Part shown: in pieces, positions 1-7,043 of the stretch
Numbering within the stretch: the first letter of the stretch is position 1
Layout of the letters: each line of letters starts with the position of its first letter
Origin: a virus
Taxonomy: Duplodnaviria; Heunggongvirae; Uroviricota; Caudoviricetes
IMG/VR virus record: IMGVR_UViG_2651869755_000013
Direction: 5' to 3' (one strand)
DNA: 7,043 bases
Notes under the pieces: model-generated
The model's input: the letters and a program-made list of their open reading frames with translations, nothing else
What the model was told of the DNA's origin: nothing
Database searches by the model: none
Program-made: the position numbers and the translations under genes

Positions 1-248
1 TTCGTGCAGTCTGTCTCGGAAAGAAAAACTTTATGTTCTTTGGCAGCGATCACGGCGGCGAGCGTGGAGCACTGTTGTACGGGCTGATCGGCACCTGCCG
101 TCTGAACGGTATCGATCCGGAAGCGTATCTGCGCCATATCCTGAGCGTACTGCCGGAATGGCCTTCCAACCGAGTTGACGAACTCCTGCCATGGAACGTA
201 GTACTCACCAATAAATAAGCGTCAATACGGTGCTCCGTTGACGCTTAC
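1..248 (+). mobile_element. IS66-family insertion sequence, right-hand terminal portion (partial; element continues upstream of the window)
   Basis: Transposase C-terminal ORF ends at 218. Sequence 242-248 is CGCTTAC, the reverse complement of the GTAAGCG terminus typical of IS66-family inverted repeats. Homology to phage gene C begins immediately at 249. A 9-bp hairpin (217-225 / 238-246) sits inside the terminal repeat. Confidence 0.7.
3..218 (+). CDS. IS66-family transposase (TnpC-like), C-terminal fragment; 5' end lies outside the window
   Basis: Open frame runs from the window edge to TAA at 216-218. The translation (FGSDHGGERGALLYGLIGTCRLNGIDPEAYLRHILSVL...VDELLPWNVVLTNK) matches the conserved C-terminal motifs of IS66-family transposases as I recall them (GSDxGGER, KLNGxDP, ELLPWN). 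Confidence 0.8.
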   Translation, partial: RAVCLGKKNFMFFGSDHGGERGALLYGLIGTCRLNGIDPEAYLRHILSVLPEWPSNRVDELLPWNVVLTNK

Positions 249-390
249 GTACCTGCTGTTGTGGTACCGAAAGACTTGCTGCCCCCATCTCGCGCCCGAG
301 CGCGCAAAAGAAAACCCGCGCATAGGCGGGCTCCAGAAGCAGCGGTTCATTGAATGCTGCGGCAATAATGTGTGAAAGATTACGTCTCAC
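249..390 (-). pseudogene. C: Head gene C (lambda gpC-like prohead protease/scaffold), 5' stub of about 47 codons truncated by the IS66-family insertion
   Basis: Translation from a GTG at 390 (RRNLSHIIAAAFNEPLLLEPAYARVFFCALG...) matches the lambda gpC N-terminus. Similarity ends near 250 and the frame then reads into the IS terminus and stops at 205. The start overlaps the portal gene 3' end as in lambda. Confidence 0.7.
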
Positions 391-2175: not shown

Positions 2176-4087
2176 TCACTCCTCCGGACAGCTTCGCTGC
2201 CAGTTCTTTAAGGGTTGGCCGGGTCGTCTCTTCTTCCCGGGATTTTGCCAGTACAGCCAGATCAAGCTGCCAGCGTTGCACGGACACACGTAATGCCGCA
2301 TAGGCATACACCAGGCAGTCCAGCGCTTCGTTACGCCGCTTTTTGTTATCCCACAGCAGACGCATCTTTCCTTTTTCCCACTTCTCCACAAGCTCTTCCG
2401 CGACCAGTTGCTGCGCCTCTGTCTGCGAAAAAATCTCCGGATCATCAGGAAAACGGATGGCATACGACGTGGCTTCATCCGCAGGAGTGGGATCGGCTTT
2501 CATACGGGCATAGAGAATTTCTTTTGCGGTGTCCGTCCCCACTTCACACAGATACACGCCCCGCTGATTGCGGGTTTTCGGCATGGTGATCACCGGCTTG
2601 CCATAGACAGATGCGCCTTTTACCGGCAGCACCCGGAAAACACCGTGTTTTTTTGACCTCTGATAGACAATTTCACCATCGATCCCCCCGGTGTCCCAGC
2701 AGACACGGGAAATGGTCATTTCGGTTCCGTCTGCATGGCAGTATTTTTTGTTGATCGCCGCATCCACACGTAACAGCGTCTCTTCCTCATCGGGACGGCC
2801 CATAATGATGATTTTATCCACCAGAAAAGCTTCCTCTCCCGGTGCCCATCCCCAGACATACATCTCAAAACGGTTTCGCTGCGAGTCAATGCCCGCCGTC
2901 AGATAAACCACCCGGGCTGGCACCGCCGCCGTGTAATGCACGACCTTATCCATCAGTACCTGGTGATCGAGTTTTTCGCCCACGGCCTCTTCCCAGGTCT
3001 CGCCCAGCGTGGTGTTCACAAAGGTTTTCAGGCCGTTGGGATCTTTCAGTGCATCCAGCCAGTCATAGACTATCTGTACCCAGGTGGTGAACGGACTGTA
3101 CGCCGTCCAGATATGGAACGTGATGGAGCGCGGCGGCGGAATTTCATTATCCGCGGCGCTGAAAAACGTCAGACCGTCACGGGTCCACATCCCCGTGTTT
3201 TCACAGATCCACCGCCCGTTGCTCTGGTCAAGCTCAGACTGATGGATCACGCAGCCATGATGTTCACAGAGGTAGAAAACGCTTTCGGGGCTGTCCTTCT
3301 CCCATTTAAGGCCAAAAGGCGTGGATTCATCGCCAAATTTCAGATACTGCTCCTCCCCACAGTGTGGGCAGGGCACATAAAAACGCATGAAATGCGCCGA
3401 CTCGTTGGCCGCTTTTTCGATCTGGCAGGTGCCTTTGATTTTAGGCGTCGAGCCGCGAATGGATTTGGGCCATACAGAGCCCTCAATACGTTTATCCCCA
3501 AGCAGGGTTGGCGACCCCTCTTTTTCGACATCCGGTTCGAACGAGGAAAGTTCGTCATAGCAGACCACGTCCACGGATTTTTCACGGTAGTTTTTAGCGG
3601 CAGCCCCGCCCAGGCACCAGAAGCCCACGCCCGATGAAAAACGTTTCAGCGTGAGGGTATTATCACGATGTTTACGCCCAAACCACGGTGCAAGATCGAG
3701 TAAAACCGGCACATCCCTGATCGTGGGTTCCACATGAGATTTCATAAAATCTTCAGCAGCAGAATCCGTGGGCTGGAAAAGAAGGCTGTTGCGTGATTTA
3801 TGCTCAATAAAATAAGCCTCCACTCCCAGCAACATCTTTGTATAACCAACACGGGCAGATTTAATCAGATTAACAGTGCGGATCCGGTCATTCCCCATGC
3901 TGTTCATGATGGCAACCTGAAACGGCAGTGTTTCCCACCGCCCCGGGGTGTAAGATGACTCTTTCGGAAGGTAATAATGTCGATCTGCCCACTGAACTGT
4001 CGTCAGAGGGACAGGAATTTTTAGCGCAAGGAGGCCGGTTGCTATCGCTCCTGCAGAATTAGCCGCCCTCAGTTCGTCTGAAATCAT
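2159..4087 (-). CDS. A: Terminase large subunit (lambda gpA-like), about 642 aa
   Basis: Strong lambda gpA similarity from [27 protein letters not shown] through the ATPase and nuclease regions ([74 protein letters not shown]). I place the start at ATG 4087 ([10 protein letters not shown]...), which has an AGGTGG SD 4 nt upstream and gives a 29-nt overlap with Nu1, close to the 26-nt overlap in lambda. The track's longer ORF to 4129 has no SD. Confidence 0.95.
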
Positions 4088-5180: not shown

Positions 5181-5803
5181 CATGGTGTTCACAGAACACG
5201 CAGTTACCGGACACATCAGTTTTCCATTCGCTCCCTGGCAGTACAGGCTTCCCCTCTGACGGGATAGCCTGAAAAAATAACACAGAAAATTATTTGTTAT
5301 AATTAATATAACTTACTCAAAAAAAAGCGACGAGAAAATCAGCATCAACGAACAATAAGCGCCAATACGTGATAACAAATGGCAGCCATATTTATCTGCA
5401 GTATAAGCAATGGACAGGATAACCACTCCAGAAACCGTCAGCATAAAATCCATTTGAACTTCCCCGGACAAAATCGACTCATCTAAAGATTTACAGCTCT
5501 TTTTATTATCAATATGTTAAAAGTAAAATAAACAGATGTTCAATAACACGAATACAAAAACGTGCTGAAATTCAATGAATCCATTTCTGTGTCATCAATT
5601 AATAGTGATAAACATCCGGCTTCTTCCACCATCGCACCGGACAGGCGACTATGAGGGGACAACGCCGCGCTCCGTTAACGCGGTAAACCCCGGTGTGTGT
5701 CGTTTTTGATTATCCCCGCACACTCGCGCAGAGGAGTCTCCCTGTCGGGCTGCGGTCTCTGTTAATGCGGGGATACGGCGACAATACCGCGCATCAGCAA
5801 AAC

Positions 5804-6277
5804 CTATTTCAGGCACTGAGTGCGGATATAGTCCTGCGCCCCTTCCAGCTGCTTCTGCATCAGCATCAACCGTTCTCTGAGAGTGAAATAATCCCGTTCA
5901 GCGGTGTCTGCCAGTTGGGGGCCGGTTGCATTATCCACGCGGGCGGTGCCGGTGGCTTCACGCACGGGACCTGGACAGGTGGCGTTGATACGCAGGCGCT
6001 TACGACCAGCGGCAACGTCAGCGCGAAGAGTTTCATTTTCAGCTCTCGCATCGGCTAATTCCCTCGAGTATTTTGCATCGAGCGCAGCAACATCGCGCTG
6101 GCGCACCTGCATATCAGTAATGGTTGCGTTCGCCAGCTTCAGTTCACTGGCTTTGTTATCGCGCTGCGCTTTGTAGGTAATCGCGTTATCACGGTAATGG
6201 TCTGTTGCCATCCACAGCGCTCCACAGGCCACCAGCAGAATAACGATAAACGCGGAAAGCATTCGGTTTATGTTCAC
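5804..6277 (-). CDS. Rz: Rz i-spanin (inner-membrane spanin subunit), 157 aa from GTG at 6277 (alternative ATG at 6262)
   Basis: The translation (...[69 protein letters not shown]...[41 protein letters not shown]) is highly similar to lambda Rz, with an N-terminal TM segment. The GTG start overlaps the stop of the upstream small ORF (GTGA). Confidence 0.9.
5866..6051 (-). CDS. Rz1: Rz1 o-spanin (outer-membrane lipoprotein subunit), 61 aa, embedded in the +1 frame of Rz
   Basis: Lies entirely inside Rz in another frame. Signal peptide with lipobox (LPLVVSAC) followed by a Pro-rich mature region ([26 protein letters not shown]), closely matching lambda Rz1. Confidence 0.85.
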
Positions 6278-6405
6278 CCCAGCAGCCCCGACGAAGACAA
6301 CATCATCCAGGCCATGGAAAGAAAAAGAGCAACCAGCATTAGTGAAAATGAAATGCCGACAATTACACAGAGGATCTTCGCCAGCGTTATGAGTTTGTCT
6401 GACAT
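6274..6405 (-). CDS. Hypothetical 43-aa hydrophobic single-TM peptide ([43 protein letters not shown]), translationally coupled to Rz
   Basis: ATG at 6405 is preceded by a strong SD (AAGGGAGGA) at 7-nt spacing. The TGA stop overlaps the Rz GTG start. The gene occupies the position where a lambda-type cassette has its endolysin gene, but it is far too short and too hydrophobic to be one. The track's 73-aa version includes an N-terminal extension with no SD. Confidence 0.5.
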
Positions 6406-6419
6406 GCTTAATCCTCCCT

Positions 6420-6602
6420 TCACGATTTCAACGCAATGACCAGTTTTGCCAGCCCATACAGCATCGGGGACACAGCAACACCGACCGCCACCCACTTAAT
6501 GGCAAAAGCCAGTGCTCTGCTGATGTCATCAGTTACAGGCGCTTTCAGTTCAAGGCCGTTTTTCATAGTCAACCTCAACAGAATTCGTTTATACTTTTCC
6601 AT
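6420..6602 (-). CDS. Hypothetical 60-aa protein with a charged N-terminus and a C-terminal TM segment ([60 protein letters not shown]); candidate holin-like or lysis-regulatory membrane protein
   Basis: ATG at 6602 has an AGGGAGAA SD upstream and is the first gene after the terminator hairpin. Codon usage looks E. coli-like (CTG-rich). The stop is 14 nt upstream of the next ORF's start. I do not recognise similarity to lambda S or phage 21 S. Confidence 0.45.
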
Positions 6603-6636
6603 GTTCTCCCTTGCCTTATCCAAGGTCAGAAACACA

Positions 6637-6677
6637 AAACCCCGCTTGCAGCCAACAAACGGGGTTTTTACTTTTAT
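6637..6677 (-). terminator. Intrinsic terminator-like hairpin with U-tracts on both strands (tR'-like on the late-gene strand)
   Basis: Stem CCCCG (6640-6644) pairs with CGGGG (6660-6664) and extends by A/T pairs (6637-6639 with 6665-6667). On the minus-strand RNA the stem is followed by UUUUGUGUUUCUG; on the plus strand by UUUUUACUUUUAUU. It sits about 35 bp upstream of the 60-aa ORF. Confidence 0.5.
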
Positions 6678-6739
6678 TCACTTAGGTTTTGCCAGTTCTC
6701 AGGATTTCGTGTTATCCGTCCGCATTAGCCAACGTCATT

Positions 6740-6769
6740 TTTCAACAAAATATTCTGCTTATTTGTCAA
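6740..6769 (-). promoter_or_regulatory. Candidate remnant of the late promoter (pR'-like): consensus -35 hexamer TTGACA at 6764-6769 (minus strand), without a convincing -10
   Basis: A perfect TTGACA lies about 100 nt upstream of the terminator hairpin. Hexamers at 15-19 bp spacing (GTTGAA, TTGAAA) match TATAAT poorly. The IS629 end is only 27 bp upstream. Confidence 0.2.
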
Positions 6770-6796
6770 TTCCCCAGCACGCCAGCGCGCTCTCCT

Positions 6797-7043
6797 TGAA
6801 CCGCCCCGGGAATCCTGGAGACTAAACTTCCTGAGAAAGAGGTAAACAGGATGACTAAAAATACTCGTTTTTCCCCTGAAGTCCGTCAACGGGCAGTCCG
6901 TATGGTTCTGGAAAGTCAGGGCGAATATGACTCACAATGGGCGACAATTTGTTCCATTGCTCCAAAGATTGGCTGTACGCCGGAGACTCTGCGTGTCTGG
7001 GTTCGCCAGCATGAGCGGGATACCGGGGGCGGTGATGGAGGGC
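6797..7043 (+). mobile_element. IS629-like (IS3-family; IS629/IS1203 group) insertion sequence, left end (partial; continues beyond the window)
   Basis: The left terminus TGAACCGCCCCGGGAATCCTGGAGACTAAACTTCCTGAGAAAGAGGTAAACAGG begins at 6797 and is followed by orfA at 6851. The sequence matches IS629 as I recall it, and the terminal TG is typical of the IS3 family. Confidence 0.85.
6851..7043 (+). CDS. IS629-like OrfA (IS3-family transposase N-terminal HTH protein), 5' portion; 3' end outside the window
   Basis: ATG at 6851 with an AGAGGTAAACAGG SD. The translation [64 protein letters not shown] matches IS629 OrfA as I recall it. Confidence 0.88.

Follow-up and report, generated by a model that had tools for sequence, protein, structure and literature searches.

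In phage lambda, the endolysin gene and the spanin gene overlap directly, and the holin gene S combines a dual-start motif, with starts two codons apart, and the sdi stem-loop, giving holin S105 and antiholin S107. Morons of lambdoid phages were reportedly treated by Juhala et al. in 2000. The closest described counterpart of the locus analysed here is the lysis cassette of the phage 21/Stx type. Relatives of our locus have genes for a class II holin of the S21 type (71 aa; dual start, MYQMEK...), for a lysozyme of 177 aa whose N-terminal part includes a SAR-like segment, and for Rz, in which Rz1 is embedded, and a survey of Stx phages reports the same lysis-cassette layout (PMC8136144). The cassette of the Qin prophage in E. 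coli K-12 has the same gene order, essQ-ydfR-rrrQ, with rrrQ as a lysozyme gene of 534 nt. There, rrrQ and rzpQ overlap by 4 nt without an insert, and rzpQ encodes a spanin-like DUF2514 protein from a family different from that of Rz in our locus. Small accessory proteins are known from other phages. The 'releasin' gp25 of phage Mu, encoded a few genes downstream of the SAR endolysin, is a small, membrane-tethered and mostly cytoplasmic protein that controls endolysin release; it belongs to DUF2730, has 99 aa and combines a TMD at its N-terminus (N-out, C-in) with a cytoplasmic domain that is acidic (PMC9239132). The moron concept for lambdoid phages has been described by Cumby et al. (PMC3594210).

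The stretch of DNA analysed here, in the following called the window, is 7,043 nt long and represents a lambdoid prophage fragment with its lysis cassette read on the minus strand. In the direction of transcription, we delineated these features:

6797-7043, plus strand: left end of an IS3-family element (IS629/IS1203-like), delimited by homology break, identity and orfA translation
6759-6796, minus strand: 3′ remnant of the gene for a 177-aa SAR-type lysozyme (endolysin R), 11 codons plus TAA
6702-6718, minus strand: CGGATAACACGAAATCC, a non-coding element conserved in the R-hairpin spacer
6626-6673, minus strand: GC-rich hairpin with an A run on one side and a T run on the other (stem 6668-6636; terminator scan and fold)
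6420-6602, minus strand: ORF60, a tail-anchored small membrane protein of 60 aa (phrog_1115; PHROG E 1.4e-42)
6274-6405, minus strand: ORF43, a single-pass inner-membrane peptide of 43 aa (phrog_4906; PHROG E 2.1e-23)
5804-6277, minus strand: Rz, the i-spanin (Pfam PF03245, E 5e-50)
5866-6051, minus strand: Rz1, the o-spanin lipoprotein, embedded in the +1 frame of Rz (Pfam PF06085, E 1.3e-20)

In the window, unlike in the phage 21/Stx cassette, the IS element cuts off S and almost the whole of R, and the stretch from R to Rz includes a hairpin and two small ORFs. The alignment with intact relatives breaks off exactly at 6797, the first base of the terminal inverted repeat TGAACCGCCCCGGG. Membership in the IS3 family (IS629/IS1203 group) is indicated by this repeat (TGAAC...), by the translated N-terminus of orfA, a gene that in this group begins with an HTH region and that here starts at ~6851 and continues past the window end, and by the 96.7% identity of the left end over 270 nt to copies annotated as 'IS3-like element IS629 family transposase'. 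On the other side of the junction, positions 6796-6759 correspond to the last 38 nt of the lysozyme gene, 100% identical to the end of WP_001554972.1 from E. coli ML35 and 96% identical to the lysozyme R of phage PhiR5_2. This is all that the window holds of a lambdoid-cassette endolysin, and the full 177-aa gene is found in relatives. Judged from this junction, an IS3-family element interrupted the lysozyme gene 35 nt before the endolysin stop codon, which would set the bulk of R and the whole of S apart from the remaining cassette. The earlier note on this DNA had seen no recognisable endolysin in the late operon; it overlooked the lysozyme tail, but one of its readings, a lost endolysin, survives in so far as the IS element cut the endolysin off. 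Holin and endolysin appear to be missing for the same reason, the cut in the lysis operon. As one piece, the IS junction was found neither in 5,426 complete E. coli genomes nor in GTDB species representatives, and a protein-based scan of genome contigs gave no match either. IS-disrupted prophage lysis cassettes are common, and the locus does not suggest lysis without a holin or an endolysin.

The gene order of intact relatives is S21-type pinholin, in some cases YdfR, 177-aa SAR lysozyme, hairpin, ORF60, ORF43 and Rz/Rz1, seen in full in E. coli ML35 and phage PhiR5_2. A holin gene, lying outside our window and in these cases encoding the 71-aa S21-type protein, and a lysozyme gene precede ORF60-ORF43-Rz in 73 related loci for which the fetched DNA reaches far enough upstream. 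ORF60 and ORF43 had been described as sitting in the place of holin and endolysin, which these separate upstream genes contradict. From the R stop to the Rz start there are 482 nt, containing the hairpin and the two ORFs; as proposed earlier, no ORF of endolysin size exists between hairpin and Rz. According to these alignments, ORF60, ORF43 and the hairpin are an accessory insert between R and Rz in intact relatives, not a replacement of S and R. The comparison with related prophages suggested in the earlier note confirmed that the ORF60-ORF43-Rz arrangement is conserved, with the endolysin gene just upstream rather than elsewhere. At least 80% of positions 5700-6900 of the window, from the lysozyme tail to Rz, is present in 953 of the 5,426 complete E. 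coli genomes and also in phages such as PhiR5_2; the ORF60-ORF43 pair is present in about one-sixth of complete E. coli genomes. Within the spacer between R and the hairpin, CGGATAACACGAAATCC is kept between E. coli and Salmonella (locus L210) although its flanks diverge.

Downstream of the insert, the cassette encodes a two-component spanin, Rz with Rz1 nested in the +1 frame. We place the Rz start at GTG 6277-6275, supported by the alignment of its N-terminus (MNINRML) with that of other Rz alleles (MNRVL); the start assigned by PGAP differs (ATG at 6262). The TGA of ORF43 (6276-6274) overlaps this GTG, confirming the GTGA overlap reported before.

ORF60 follows the endolysin gene in three unrelated cassette types. 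One has the S21 pinholin and a GH24 SAR lysozyme, the next, from Salmonella, holin_2_3 and a lysozyme of 161 aa, and the last holin_3_7 and a GH108 endolysin. ORF43 accompanies ORF60 in both E. coli cassette types and is absent from the Salmonella type. The presence of ORF60 behind the endolysin in these three types speaks for a link to lysis. Relatives of ORF60 are also seen at other sites, namely behind tail-fibre genes, behind a SASA esterase gene and, in tandem arrays, behind the major capsid gene. In other phages, the slot between R and Rz holds unrelated cargo, namely Ant, a KilAC antirepressor or a Dam-like methylase. Because the slot accepts unrelated cargo, position alone is weak evidence of function.

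ORF60 starts with an ATG at 6602 behind the Shine-Dalgarno sequence AAGGGAGAA (6612-6604). A nested start at codon 13 (ATG 6566-6564 after GAGG) would give an isoform of 48 aa, and this internal Shine-Dalgarno site (GAGG-ATG) is retained in eight of nine contexts though the encoded residues differ. Across 42 alleles the dN/dS is 0.23, compared with 0.72 and 2.36 for the other two sense frames, and variable sites are distributed 22/17/44 over the codon positions, favouring the third. The low ratio and the concentration at third positions indicate that ORF60 is a real gene, and in these alignments purifying selection on it is clear. Synonymous divergence is 0.133 in codons 1-20 and 0.185-0.228 in codons 21-60. 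The AF2 model (pLDDT 76) has a helix at residues 2-14, a loop and a second helix at 23-59; the best 19-residue hydropathy window scores 1.88, with eight K+R in its N-terminal flank. A search with the ORF60 profile against 1.84 billion representatives returned only 21 clusters, all of them unannotated and made up of short peptides of this same type. By these comparisons, ORF60 belongs to a small family of tail-anchored peptides of enterobacterial prophages, whose predicted common traits are an N-terminus that is basic and cytoplasmic, a C-terminal helix of weak hydrophobicity, a nested internal start and an own terminator-like hairpin upstream.

In front of ORF43, the Shine-Dalgarno sequence AAGGGAGGA (6420-6412) is spaced 6 nt from the ATG. 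Both ORFs and their Shine-Dalgarno sites are real, and each ORF encodes a single hydrophobic segment, as described earlier. ORF43 is open in all 30 alleles, and its Shine-Dalgarno site and ATG are kept behind ORF60, Ant and the KilAC antirepressor. Its length (43-44 codons), hydrophobic profile and motif VG(I/L)SF...AW are preserved at 67-71% nucleotide identity. The family, phrog_4906, is found in 276 phage records, most Stx phages among them. At deep divergence, the dN/dS is 0.29-0.50 (p 0.008-0.04); the value pooled over alleles is 0.41, and variable sites are distributed 21/16/23 over the codon positions; the signal of selection in these alleles is modest. The antisense frame across ORF43 is likewise open in all alleles with a similar ratio (0.435), so that dN/dS alone cannot choose the strand. 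We favour the sense strand on account of the Shine-Dalgarno site and ATG in three contexts, the TM profile and RIBOseq data, and ORF43 is probably a real gene. The antisense ORFs at 6197-6439 and 6436-6825, both on the plus strand, had no PHROG match. In the first three scans, each of the 208 loci with sufficient reach has ORF43 immediately 5′ of Rz, whatever precedes it; the exception among the cassette types is the GH108 cassette, in which it precedes a lipoprotein gene instead. The Stx-phage allele seen most often provides Rz with a separate ATG and a GAGAG Shine-Dalgarno site 7 nt past the ORF43 stop.

The Stx-phage allele of ORF43 is XECs191 (MMGWLMISDKLITLVKSLCVLVGISFLVMLVAIFFSTAWRVLTLSGLVG), listed for E. 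coli O157:H7 Sakai as a 'novel small gene', for which Hücker et al. (2017) predicted one inner-membrane helix (PMC5597208). In LB, XECs191 had a translatome RPKM of 12.6 and an RCV of 0.43, a low RIBOseq signal from uninduced cultures (PMC5597208). This study and the PHROG families phrog_4906 and phrog_1115 are catalogue entries that do not describe a link to Rz, a hairpin module or ORF60 as a partner.

The hairpin upstream of ORF60 has a GC-rich stem of 14 bp with a T run (6668-6636 in the terminator scan), and the 111-nt stretch 6700-6590 containing it has a minimum free energy of -32.2 kcal/mol. It precedes the ORF60-family ORF in ten of ten family contexts, all with T runs on both strands; inner-stem pairs show compensatory changes between variants, and in some variants the homology starts at the hairpin itself. 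It looks like a bidirectional intrinsic terminator and like the 5′ boundary of the ORF60 module. The earlier note had taken it for the terminator tR′. The hairpin is real, but, going by its place downstream of the lysozyme gene R (tail at 6796-6759, and in the intact relatives), it sits 3′ of R and so is not a tR′ upstream of S. Only 33 nt separate it from the ORF60 ATG, and a consensus scan, which atypical promoters may escape, found no sense-strand promoter between them. Two further elements were predicted here:

6609-6625, minus strand: mini-hairpin CCUUG-N7-CAAGG (predicted fold), whose 3′ arm overlaps the ORF60 Shine-Dalgarno sequence AAGGGAGAA
6566-6595, plus strand: hypothetical sigma-70-like promoter match TAGTCA-18-TATACT, antisense to ORF60 codons 3-13 and facing the hairpin

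The 5-bp stem of the mini-hairpin recurs with a different 7-nt loop in three other loci (L210, L318 and L319-2). The antisense promoter match scores 9/12, and 1.1 such matches are expected by chance. If used, this putative promoter would yield an RNA of ~75 nt over the ribosome-binding site of ORF60. TATACT is identical in the window and in L210, L214, L216 and L317, and not in L318, where the promoter geometry is lost. A 48-nt stretch over TATACT is 100% identical between E. coli and Salmonella, compared with ~85% in the remainder of ORF60. There was no Rfam family match in the region, only a sub-threshold hit to the rimP leader on the plus strand (25.6 bits versus a gathering threshold of 47, E 0.16).

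Searches of Pfam, NCBIfam and PADLOC gave no match for ORF60 or ORF43, which form their own PHROG families of unknown function, in line with the earlier impression that they resemble neither the S proteins of lambda and phage 21 nor an endolysin. The searches revealed no homology to families of holins, antiholins, releasins or spanins, nor a PDB sequence match below E 0.1. A literature search returned no functional study on the ORF families, the R-Rz insert or the PhiR12/PhiR5 phages. Two described proteins share features with ORF60. Like lambda S, it has two nested in-frame starts, each with a Shine-Dalgarno site, and a longer product that is more basic, and a small stem-loop overlaps its upstream Shine-Dalgarno site; unlike in lambda S, the starts are 12 codons apart, and there is one weakly hydrophobic C-terminal helix without a charged tail. 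Like Mu gp25, it is a cytoplasmic peptide tethered to the membrane, and its gene closely follows that of a SAR endolysin, but it has 60 aa, a C-terminal anchor and a basic cytoplasmic part, a layout opposite to that of the releasin, and no DUF2730 match.

On balance, we lean towards a phage-21/Stx-type cassette that was cut by an IS element and carries an accessory insert of lysis-tuning membrane proteins made only late. Our best inference from sequence is that ORF60 and ORF43 are late-only accessory inner-membrane proteins modulating lysis. They would be expressed only when Q-modified late transcription passes the hairpin, given that the gap separating the hairpin from ORF60 seems to leave no room for a sense promoter. 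The upstream terminator, the hairpin occluding the Shine-Dalgarno site and the two nested starts suggest a product that would be off in the lysogen and dosed late, and translation of ORF43 may feed into Rz via the GTGA overlap. Both proteins would be non-essential and tune the envelope-disruption step, be it the triggering time of the pinholin, the SAR endolysin's release or the action of the spanins. A precedent is Mu gp25, in which a small membrane-tethered protein encoded close behind a SAR endolysin controls how that enzyme is set free (PMC9239132). Of the readings in the earlier note, that of an uncharacterised lysis-control module made of small membrane proteins also survives. We would not take them as lysogenic-conversion genes. 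Should the ORFs tune lysis timing or the action of spanins and endolysin, burst timing would be affected and, in Stx phages, the timing of toxin release. Against a lysis-tuning role, the ORF60 relatives outside lysis cassettes fit generic cargo equally well, and expression data come solely from XECs191, the homolog of ORF43. To our knowledge, phages lambda and 21 lyse without genes like ORF60 or ORF43, which also counts against it.

Among the alternatives, generic moron cargo appears unlikely, though it deserves consideration: the ORFs would encode host-benefiting inner-membrane proteins, for instance for superinfection exclusion, of which gp15 of phage HK97 is an example, and the R-Rz junction would merely tolerate insertions. 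Like morons, the ORF60-ORF43 block is inserted between otherwise adjacent genes, is bounded by a hairpin that delimits the module, and has family members at several late-operon junctions, including those where morons typically lie (behind tail-fibre genes, behind the capsid gene and at the end of the prophage). The Ant, KilAC and Dam cargo found elsewhere in the R-Rz slot points in the same direction, as does the transcription and translation of XECs191 to some extent in uninduced Sakai cultures. This low signal could, however, reflect spontaneous induction. The module also differs from morons in the absence of a sense promoter detectable by scan, with just those 33 nt from hairpin to ATG, and in having its terminator upstream of the ORF, not downstream, the reverse of the promoter-gene-terminator layout; PADLOC, moreover, gave no match, and a defence-system identity was rejected on this basis. 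More doubtful is the broader view that hairpin-leader-ORF60 units are undescribed 'locked' membrane-peptide cassettes, spread singly or in tandem arrays among the late operons of enterobacterial lambdoid phages. They would be silenced in the lysogen by the upstream terminator, the Shine-Dalgarno-occluding hairpin and possibly a cis-antisense RNA; the nested starts would make long and short isoforms acting as a holin/antiholin-like timer or as a toxin, and ORF43 would be a fifth, spanin-linked lysis gene in cassettes of the Stx-phage type. An arrangement resembling type I toxin-antitoxin systems seems improbable. In such systems, e.g., symE/symR, a cis-antisense RNA lies over the start codon; here, ORF60 would be a toxic peptide and the ~75-nt cis-antisense RNA would end at the bidirectional hairpin, in a SymR/SymE-like geometry. 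The small hydrophobic peptide, the opposite-strand promoter-like site in the 5′ codons and the terminator just upstream agree with this, as do the identity of TATACT in five otherwise diverged contexts, the invariant 48-nt stretch, the lower synonymous divergence in codons 1-20 and the T runs on both strands in all contexts. ORF60-family copies occur in tandem, like many type I toxins, and the sizes of 60 or 48 aa for ORF60 and 43 aa for ORF43 fit such toxins (under about 60 aa, one TMD). In contrast to symE/symR, the antisense RNA of ORF60 is putative, its promoter match is weak, about one being expected by chance, and not present in every member (lost in L318), and Rfam gave no match. The nucleotide conservation could be explained by the conserved KY codons together with the internal Shine-Dalgarno site alone.

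We consider it quite improbable that ORF43 serves mainly for coupling or as a leader, or is a remnant in slow decay, one that delivers ribosomes to the weak GTG of Rz and encodes a functionless peptide. The position immediately upstream of Rz in 208 loci, the overlap of its stop with the Rz GTG in the window allele and the moderate constraint on the peptide (pooled dN/dS and codon-position counts as above) would fit. Coupling is, however, unneeded in the commonest Stx-phage allele, where Rz has its own start signals; the length, the hydrophobic profile and the VG(I/L)SF...AW motif are kept despite nucleotide divergence, and in the GH108 cassette the downstream gene is not Rz. The earlier note had also considered a deletion-derived remnant for both ORFs, which conflicts with their conservation, with purifying selection and with the finding that they are not fragments of a holin or endolysin. 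Its further proposal, a compact holin/antiholin or pinholin-like pair standing in for S and R or acting independently of an endolysin, is hardly credible and, by sequence comparison, largely refuted. Both products are indeed small membrane peptides encoded beside Rz/Rz1 on the late strand, the nested starts of ORF60 recall holin genes, and its helix is weakly similar to TMD2 of the S21 holin (score 37 versus 21 ± 4 for shuffled sequences, p 0.008). However, the endolysin remnant and the IS junction lie directly upstream, and intact relatives carry a separate S21-type holin and SAR lysozyme. TMDs are present, but neither ORF belongs to a holin family by sequence or has the charged C-terminal tail of holins (ORF60 ends in ...ALKS, ORF43 in ...SSGLLG), and with a single hydrophobic segment per ORF and no PF04971 match they fall outside the S21 pinholin family.

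Two possible origins of the ORFs were considered as well. The idea that ORF43 is a duplicated N-terminal TMD of Rz was rejected, with an hhalign family-versus-family probability of 0.3%; a local alignment of ORF43 with lambda Rz gave p 0.006 against shuffles. Derivation of the ORF60 helix from TMD2 of the S21 holin is not supported, given the weak similarity and a longest shared DNA word of 8 nt. In the ENA, one contig of 554 bp (P0240) fuses the ORF60 helix and the S21 holin TMD2.

In minus-strand orientation, the window represents part of a lambdoid prophage with the following features:

7043–6797, plus strand: left end of an IS element (IS3/IS629-family identity)
6796–6759, minus strand: lysozyme gene remnant of 38 nt (megablast and alignment to relatives)
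Stem at 6668–6636, minus strand: 156-nt spacer with a strong hairpin (terminator scan, fold)
6602–6420, minus strand: ORF60, 60 amino acids (Shine-Dalgarno sequence AAGGGAGAA)
6405–6274, minus strand: ORF43, 43 amino acids (Shine-Dalgarno sequence AAGGGAGGA)
6277–5804, minus strand: Rz (GTG start)
6051–5866, minus strand: Rz1, embedded in Rz
Strand opposite to the lysis genes: YlcI/YnfO-family gene
Rest of the prophage piece: small and large terminase subunits, head-tail joining protein, portal protein
Start only: head protease gene, interrupted by an IS66-family fragment at 33–218

The coordinates in the earlier note proved correct on the sequence, as did both Shine-Dalgarno sequences, the hairpin and the GTGA overlap between the ORF43 stop codon and the Rz start. 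This GTG start is favoured by alignment, in which MNINRML pairs with MNRVL of other Rz alleles; the PGAP start lies 15 nt downstream. The head protease gene (205–390, minus strand) is broken after about 50 codons by a C-terminal fragment of an IS66-family transposase (…GIDPEAYLRHILSVLPEWPSNRVDELLPWN; 33–218, plus strand). With the IS3-family end on the other side, the prophage fragment is therefore IS-bounded at both window ends. A third small hydrophobic ORF of 46 amino acids (MDFMLTVSGVVILSIAYTADKYGCHLLSRIGAYCSLMLIFSSLFFE; 5313–5453, minus strand) follows downstream of Rz/Rz1 and equals the hypothetical protein WP_000347013.1 of E. coli ML35 (locus L001, 5344–5484); its 52-amino-acid form from an upstream TTG (5471–5313) had no PHROG match.

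The operon had been described as one without holin (S) and endolysin (R), but this apparent lack is the effect of an ordinary IS insertion. We searched positions 5700–6900 by megablast against 5,426 complete E. coli genomes. The matches were at 100%, all began at query base 105 (window position 6796), and the annotations beneath them read lysozyme, hypothetical protein (twice) and lysis protein; at least 80% of the 1.2-kb query was present in 953 of the genomes. E. coli ML35 carries, in this order, a class II holin (71 amino acids), YdfR, lysozyme (177 amino acids), the 60- and 43-amino-acid hypothetical proteins, Rz, YlcI/YnfO, terminase and portal, and in phage PhiR5_2 these two ORFs likewise stand between lysozyme R, preceded by holin S, and Rz. 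In a three-way alignment, homology to relatives stops at 6797, beyond which the sequence is 96.7% identical to elements annotated as IS3/IS629 family and its translation gives the N-terminus of orfA, so an IS3-family element has entered the gene 35 nt short of the endolysin stop codon. The window breaks off within this element, the far side of which lies outside. The exact IS/lysozyme junction, as one piece, was absent from the 5,426 complete E. coli genomes and the GTDB species representatives. Because the hairpin sits downstream of R, it is not the late terminator tR' upstream of S for which it had been taken.

We used tblastn to classify 209 related loci taken from phage records and from IMG/VR. 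The order ORF60, ORF43, Rz occurs in 83 of them, and both holin and lysozyme are visible in the 73 of these 83 that extend far enough upstream. About 100 loci, Stx-type phages among them, have the order R, Ant, ORF43, Rz, while 17 show R, a KilAC antirepressor, a 31–45-amino-acid transmembrane (TM) peptide, ORF43 and Rz; Rz follows ORF43 in every classified locus with long enough DNA. In the K-12 Qin prophage, which shares the essQ-ydfR-rrrQ gene order, rrrQ and rzpQ overlap directly by 4 nt with nothing in between; hairpin, ORF60 and ORF43 are therefore an insert and not a replacement. The idea that the two ORFs stand in place of S and R thus has next to no probability left, and we regard IS truncation together with insertion of the module as almost certain. 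ORF60 and ORF43 are accessory genes inserted in lambdoid late operons, a kind already known.

Further small TM ORFs occupy the slot between R and Rz in other loci (L005, 612–1175; L049, 2426–2646; L196, 1114–1374). They include a truncated ORF60 copy whose GTG start overlaps the ORF43 stop, a 28-amino-acid relative (MSAELIRAMAFAIRIVAIAVLVWAIRWW) and peptides ending in …LITAIKG; a second, truncated ORF60 copy lies between ORF43 and Rz in 2 of the 83 loci. L196 has, in addition, an inserted gene for a Dam-like methylase ahead of Rz.

ORF60 matches phrog_1115 (E 1e-42), a PHROG family annotated with unknown function, and had no relative in Pfam, NCBIfam, PADLOC or PDB. Its homologs are limited to prophages of E. 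coli, E. marmotae and Salmonella, and when 1.84 billion representative proteins were searched with a profile, only 21 clusters came up, all of similarly built short peptides. Across 42 distinct full-length alleles the pooled Nei-Gojobori dN/dS is 0.23, against 0.72 and 2.36 in the other two sense frames, variable sites are distributed 22/17/44 over the codon positions, and the ratio falls to 0.12 in the core (codons 21–40); ORF60 is therefore a real protein-coding gene. Its AF2 model (mean pLDDT 76) has a helix at residues 2–14, a loop and a 37-residue helix at 23–59. With 8 K+R among the N-terminal 37 residues and a moderate, G/A/S-rich hydrophobic stretch (best 19-residue Kyte-Doolittle window 1.88), the peptide is predicted to be tail-anchored, with its N-terminus inside and its C-terminus outside. 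Across the family an internal Met (codon 13 in the window) is almost invariant, and GAGG, GGAGG or GAGA precedes it by 5–6 nt in 8 of 9 contexts although the encoded residues differ (LRL, VEA, MRL). This conservation points to a nested second start, which would yield products of 60 and 48 amino acids. One protein from a 554-bp ENA contig, P0240, joins the first 36 residues of an S21-type holin (…DRVSPSQW) to the last 23 of ORF60; it is either a natural recombinant at a weakly similar W-A/V-A-I/V-G-V stretch or an assembly chimera.

ORF43 matches phrog_4906 (E 2e-23) and occurs in 276 phage records, mainly of Stx-converting phages, where its annotation is often missing. It is open in all 30 DNA alleles and keeps its Shine-Dalgarno sequence and ATG in three distinct upstream contexts. 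The pooled dN/dS is 0.41, versus 0.84 and 1.15 for the two remaining sense frames, and 0.29–0.43 (p 0.008–0.04) between the deepest clades (67–77% nucleotide identity). One antisense frame is just as open and has a ratio of 0.435, and variable sites show little bias between codon positions (21/16/23); taken together, these sequence comparisons give no more than moderate evidence of selection. Ribosome profiling of O157:H7 Sakai lends independent support: the homolog was reported there as a novel gene, XECs191, and predicted to have a single helix in the inner membrane (translatome RPKM 12.6 and RCV 0.43 in LB; PMC5597208). The 19-residue core is very hydrophobic (Kyte-Doolittle 2.89), with a weak positive-inside bias towards an N-in topology. 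Through the stop/start overlap, ORF43 and Rz would be translationally coupled in the window's allele; that ORF43 is a mere coupling ORF is very unlikely.

In 10 of 10 contexts a GC-rich hairpin, with an A run on one side and a T run on the other, precedes the ORF60-family start codon by 30–60 nt. These contexts comprise the R-Rz slots of E. coli and of Salmonella, a cassette with a GH108 endolysin, loci behind tail-fibre genes, one locus behind a SASA esterase gene, and three units in a row behind a major capsid gene. In the window the hairpin was also returned by a terminator scan, and the 111-nt stretch 6700–6590 that contains it has a minimum free energy of −32.2 kcal/mol. Some E. coli variants are homologous to the window only from the hairpin itself onwards, and its inner stem varies in a compensatory manner; by these comparisons it is part of the ORF60 module. 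A second 5-bp stem, CCUUG-N7-CAAGG, overlaps the ORF60 Shine-Dalgarno sequence and recurs in several members with different loops. Since only 33 nt separate the hairpin from the ORF60 ATG and a promoter scan found no sense-strand promoter, sense expression would need read-through of the hairpin. Q-antiterminated late transcription would provide this and make sense-strand expression late only.

The metagenome contig L319 (2940–3905), with lambda-like head genes, carries three near-identical tandem hairpins (AAACGCCCCGGCAG…CTGCCGGGGCGTT) right after the major capsid gene, each followed by a small TM ORF of 51–71 amino acids, and last a 32-amino-acid TM ORF ending in AVRWW. The spacer between endolysin stop and hairpin contains CGGATAACAC(G/A)AAATCC, conserved in E. 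coli and Salmonella (window 6702–6718, minus strand; Salmonella locus L210, about 3360–3385); the Salmonella version forms an inverted repeat, GGCGGAT…ATCCGCC.

On the plus strand, a promoter-like match, TAGTCA-18-TATACT (6566–6595), is directed at the hairpin. From it, a cis-antisense RNA of about 75 nt might cover the ORF60 Shine-Dalgarno sequence and start codon, as in a type I toxin-antitoxin-like unit. The TATACT hexamer is unchanged in five diverged contexts, E. coli and Salmonella are 100% identical over the 48-nt block around it, and synonymous divergence of ORF60 is somewhat lower in codons 1–20. However, the match is no better than regional chance expectation, the promoter geometry is lost in one member, Rfam gave no match, and the conserved KY codons and the internal Shine-Dalgarno sequence could explain the nucleotide conservation. 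We consider such a unit quite unlikely and the antisense RNA a testable lead, no more.

ORF60 and ORF43 are genuine genes for small membrane proteins, conserved and already catalogued but functionally uncharacterised, in lysis cassettes of the phage-21/Stx type and related ones. In three unrelated types of cassette, ORF60 comes after the endolysin gene: S21 pinholin with GH24 SAR lysozyme; in Salmonella, holin_2_3 with a 161-amino-acid lysozyme, where ORF60 stands directly before Rz and ORF43 is absent; and holin_3_7 with a GH108/PG_binding_3 endolysin, in which ORF60 precedes a diverged ORF43 (MSDSIVKLVRILCVVVGLSF...) that overlaps a 60-amino-acid lipoprotein gene, not Rz. This recurrence in three unrelated cassette types argues for a link to lysis, whereas the ORF60 relatives after tail-fibre, SASA esterase and capsid genes, and the unrelated cargo in the R-Rz slot, count against it. 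We tentatively propose that both products would be accessory inner-membrane proteins modulating lysis, which is possible but far from assured; a moron benefiting the lysogen seems rather unlikely. A further reading, in which the units form a family of membrane-peptide cassettes locked by hairpins and ORF43 is a fifth lysis gene linked to the spanins, is unlikely too. Lambda S has a dual start with the sdi stem-loop and is one of the two closest design precedents for the module. The other is the Mu gp25 releasin, a small membrane-tethered protein that is encoded downstream of a SAR endolysin and controls its release (PMC9239132); when tested, the module belonged to neither the lambda S nor the gp25 releasin family.

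The lipoprotein gene of the GH108 cassette (locus L283, 2340–2522) encodes the lipobox LVGC and belongs to phrog_7528 (unknown function); no Rz homolog was found in the next 1.6 kb. The string GCAGAATATTTTGYTGAAAAATG, which follows the lysozyme stop in the window (6733–6755, minus strand), also follows this unrelated gene (L283, 2535–2557) and may be a linker that recurs where mosaic modules meet.
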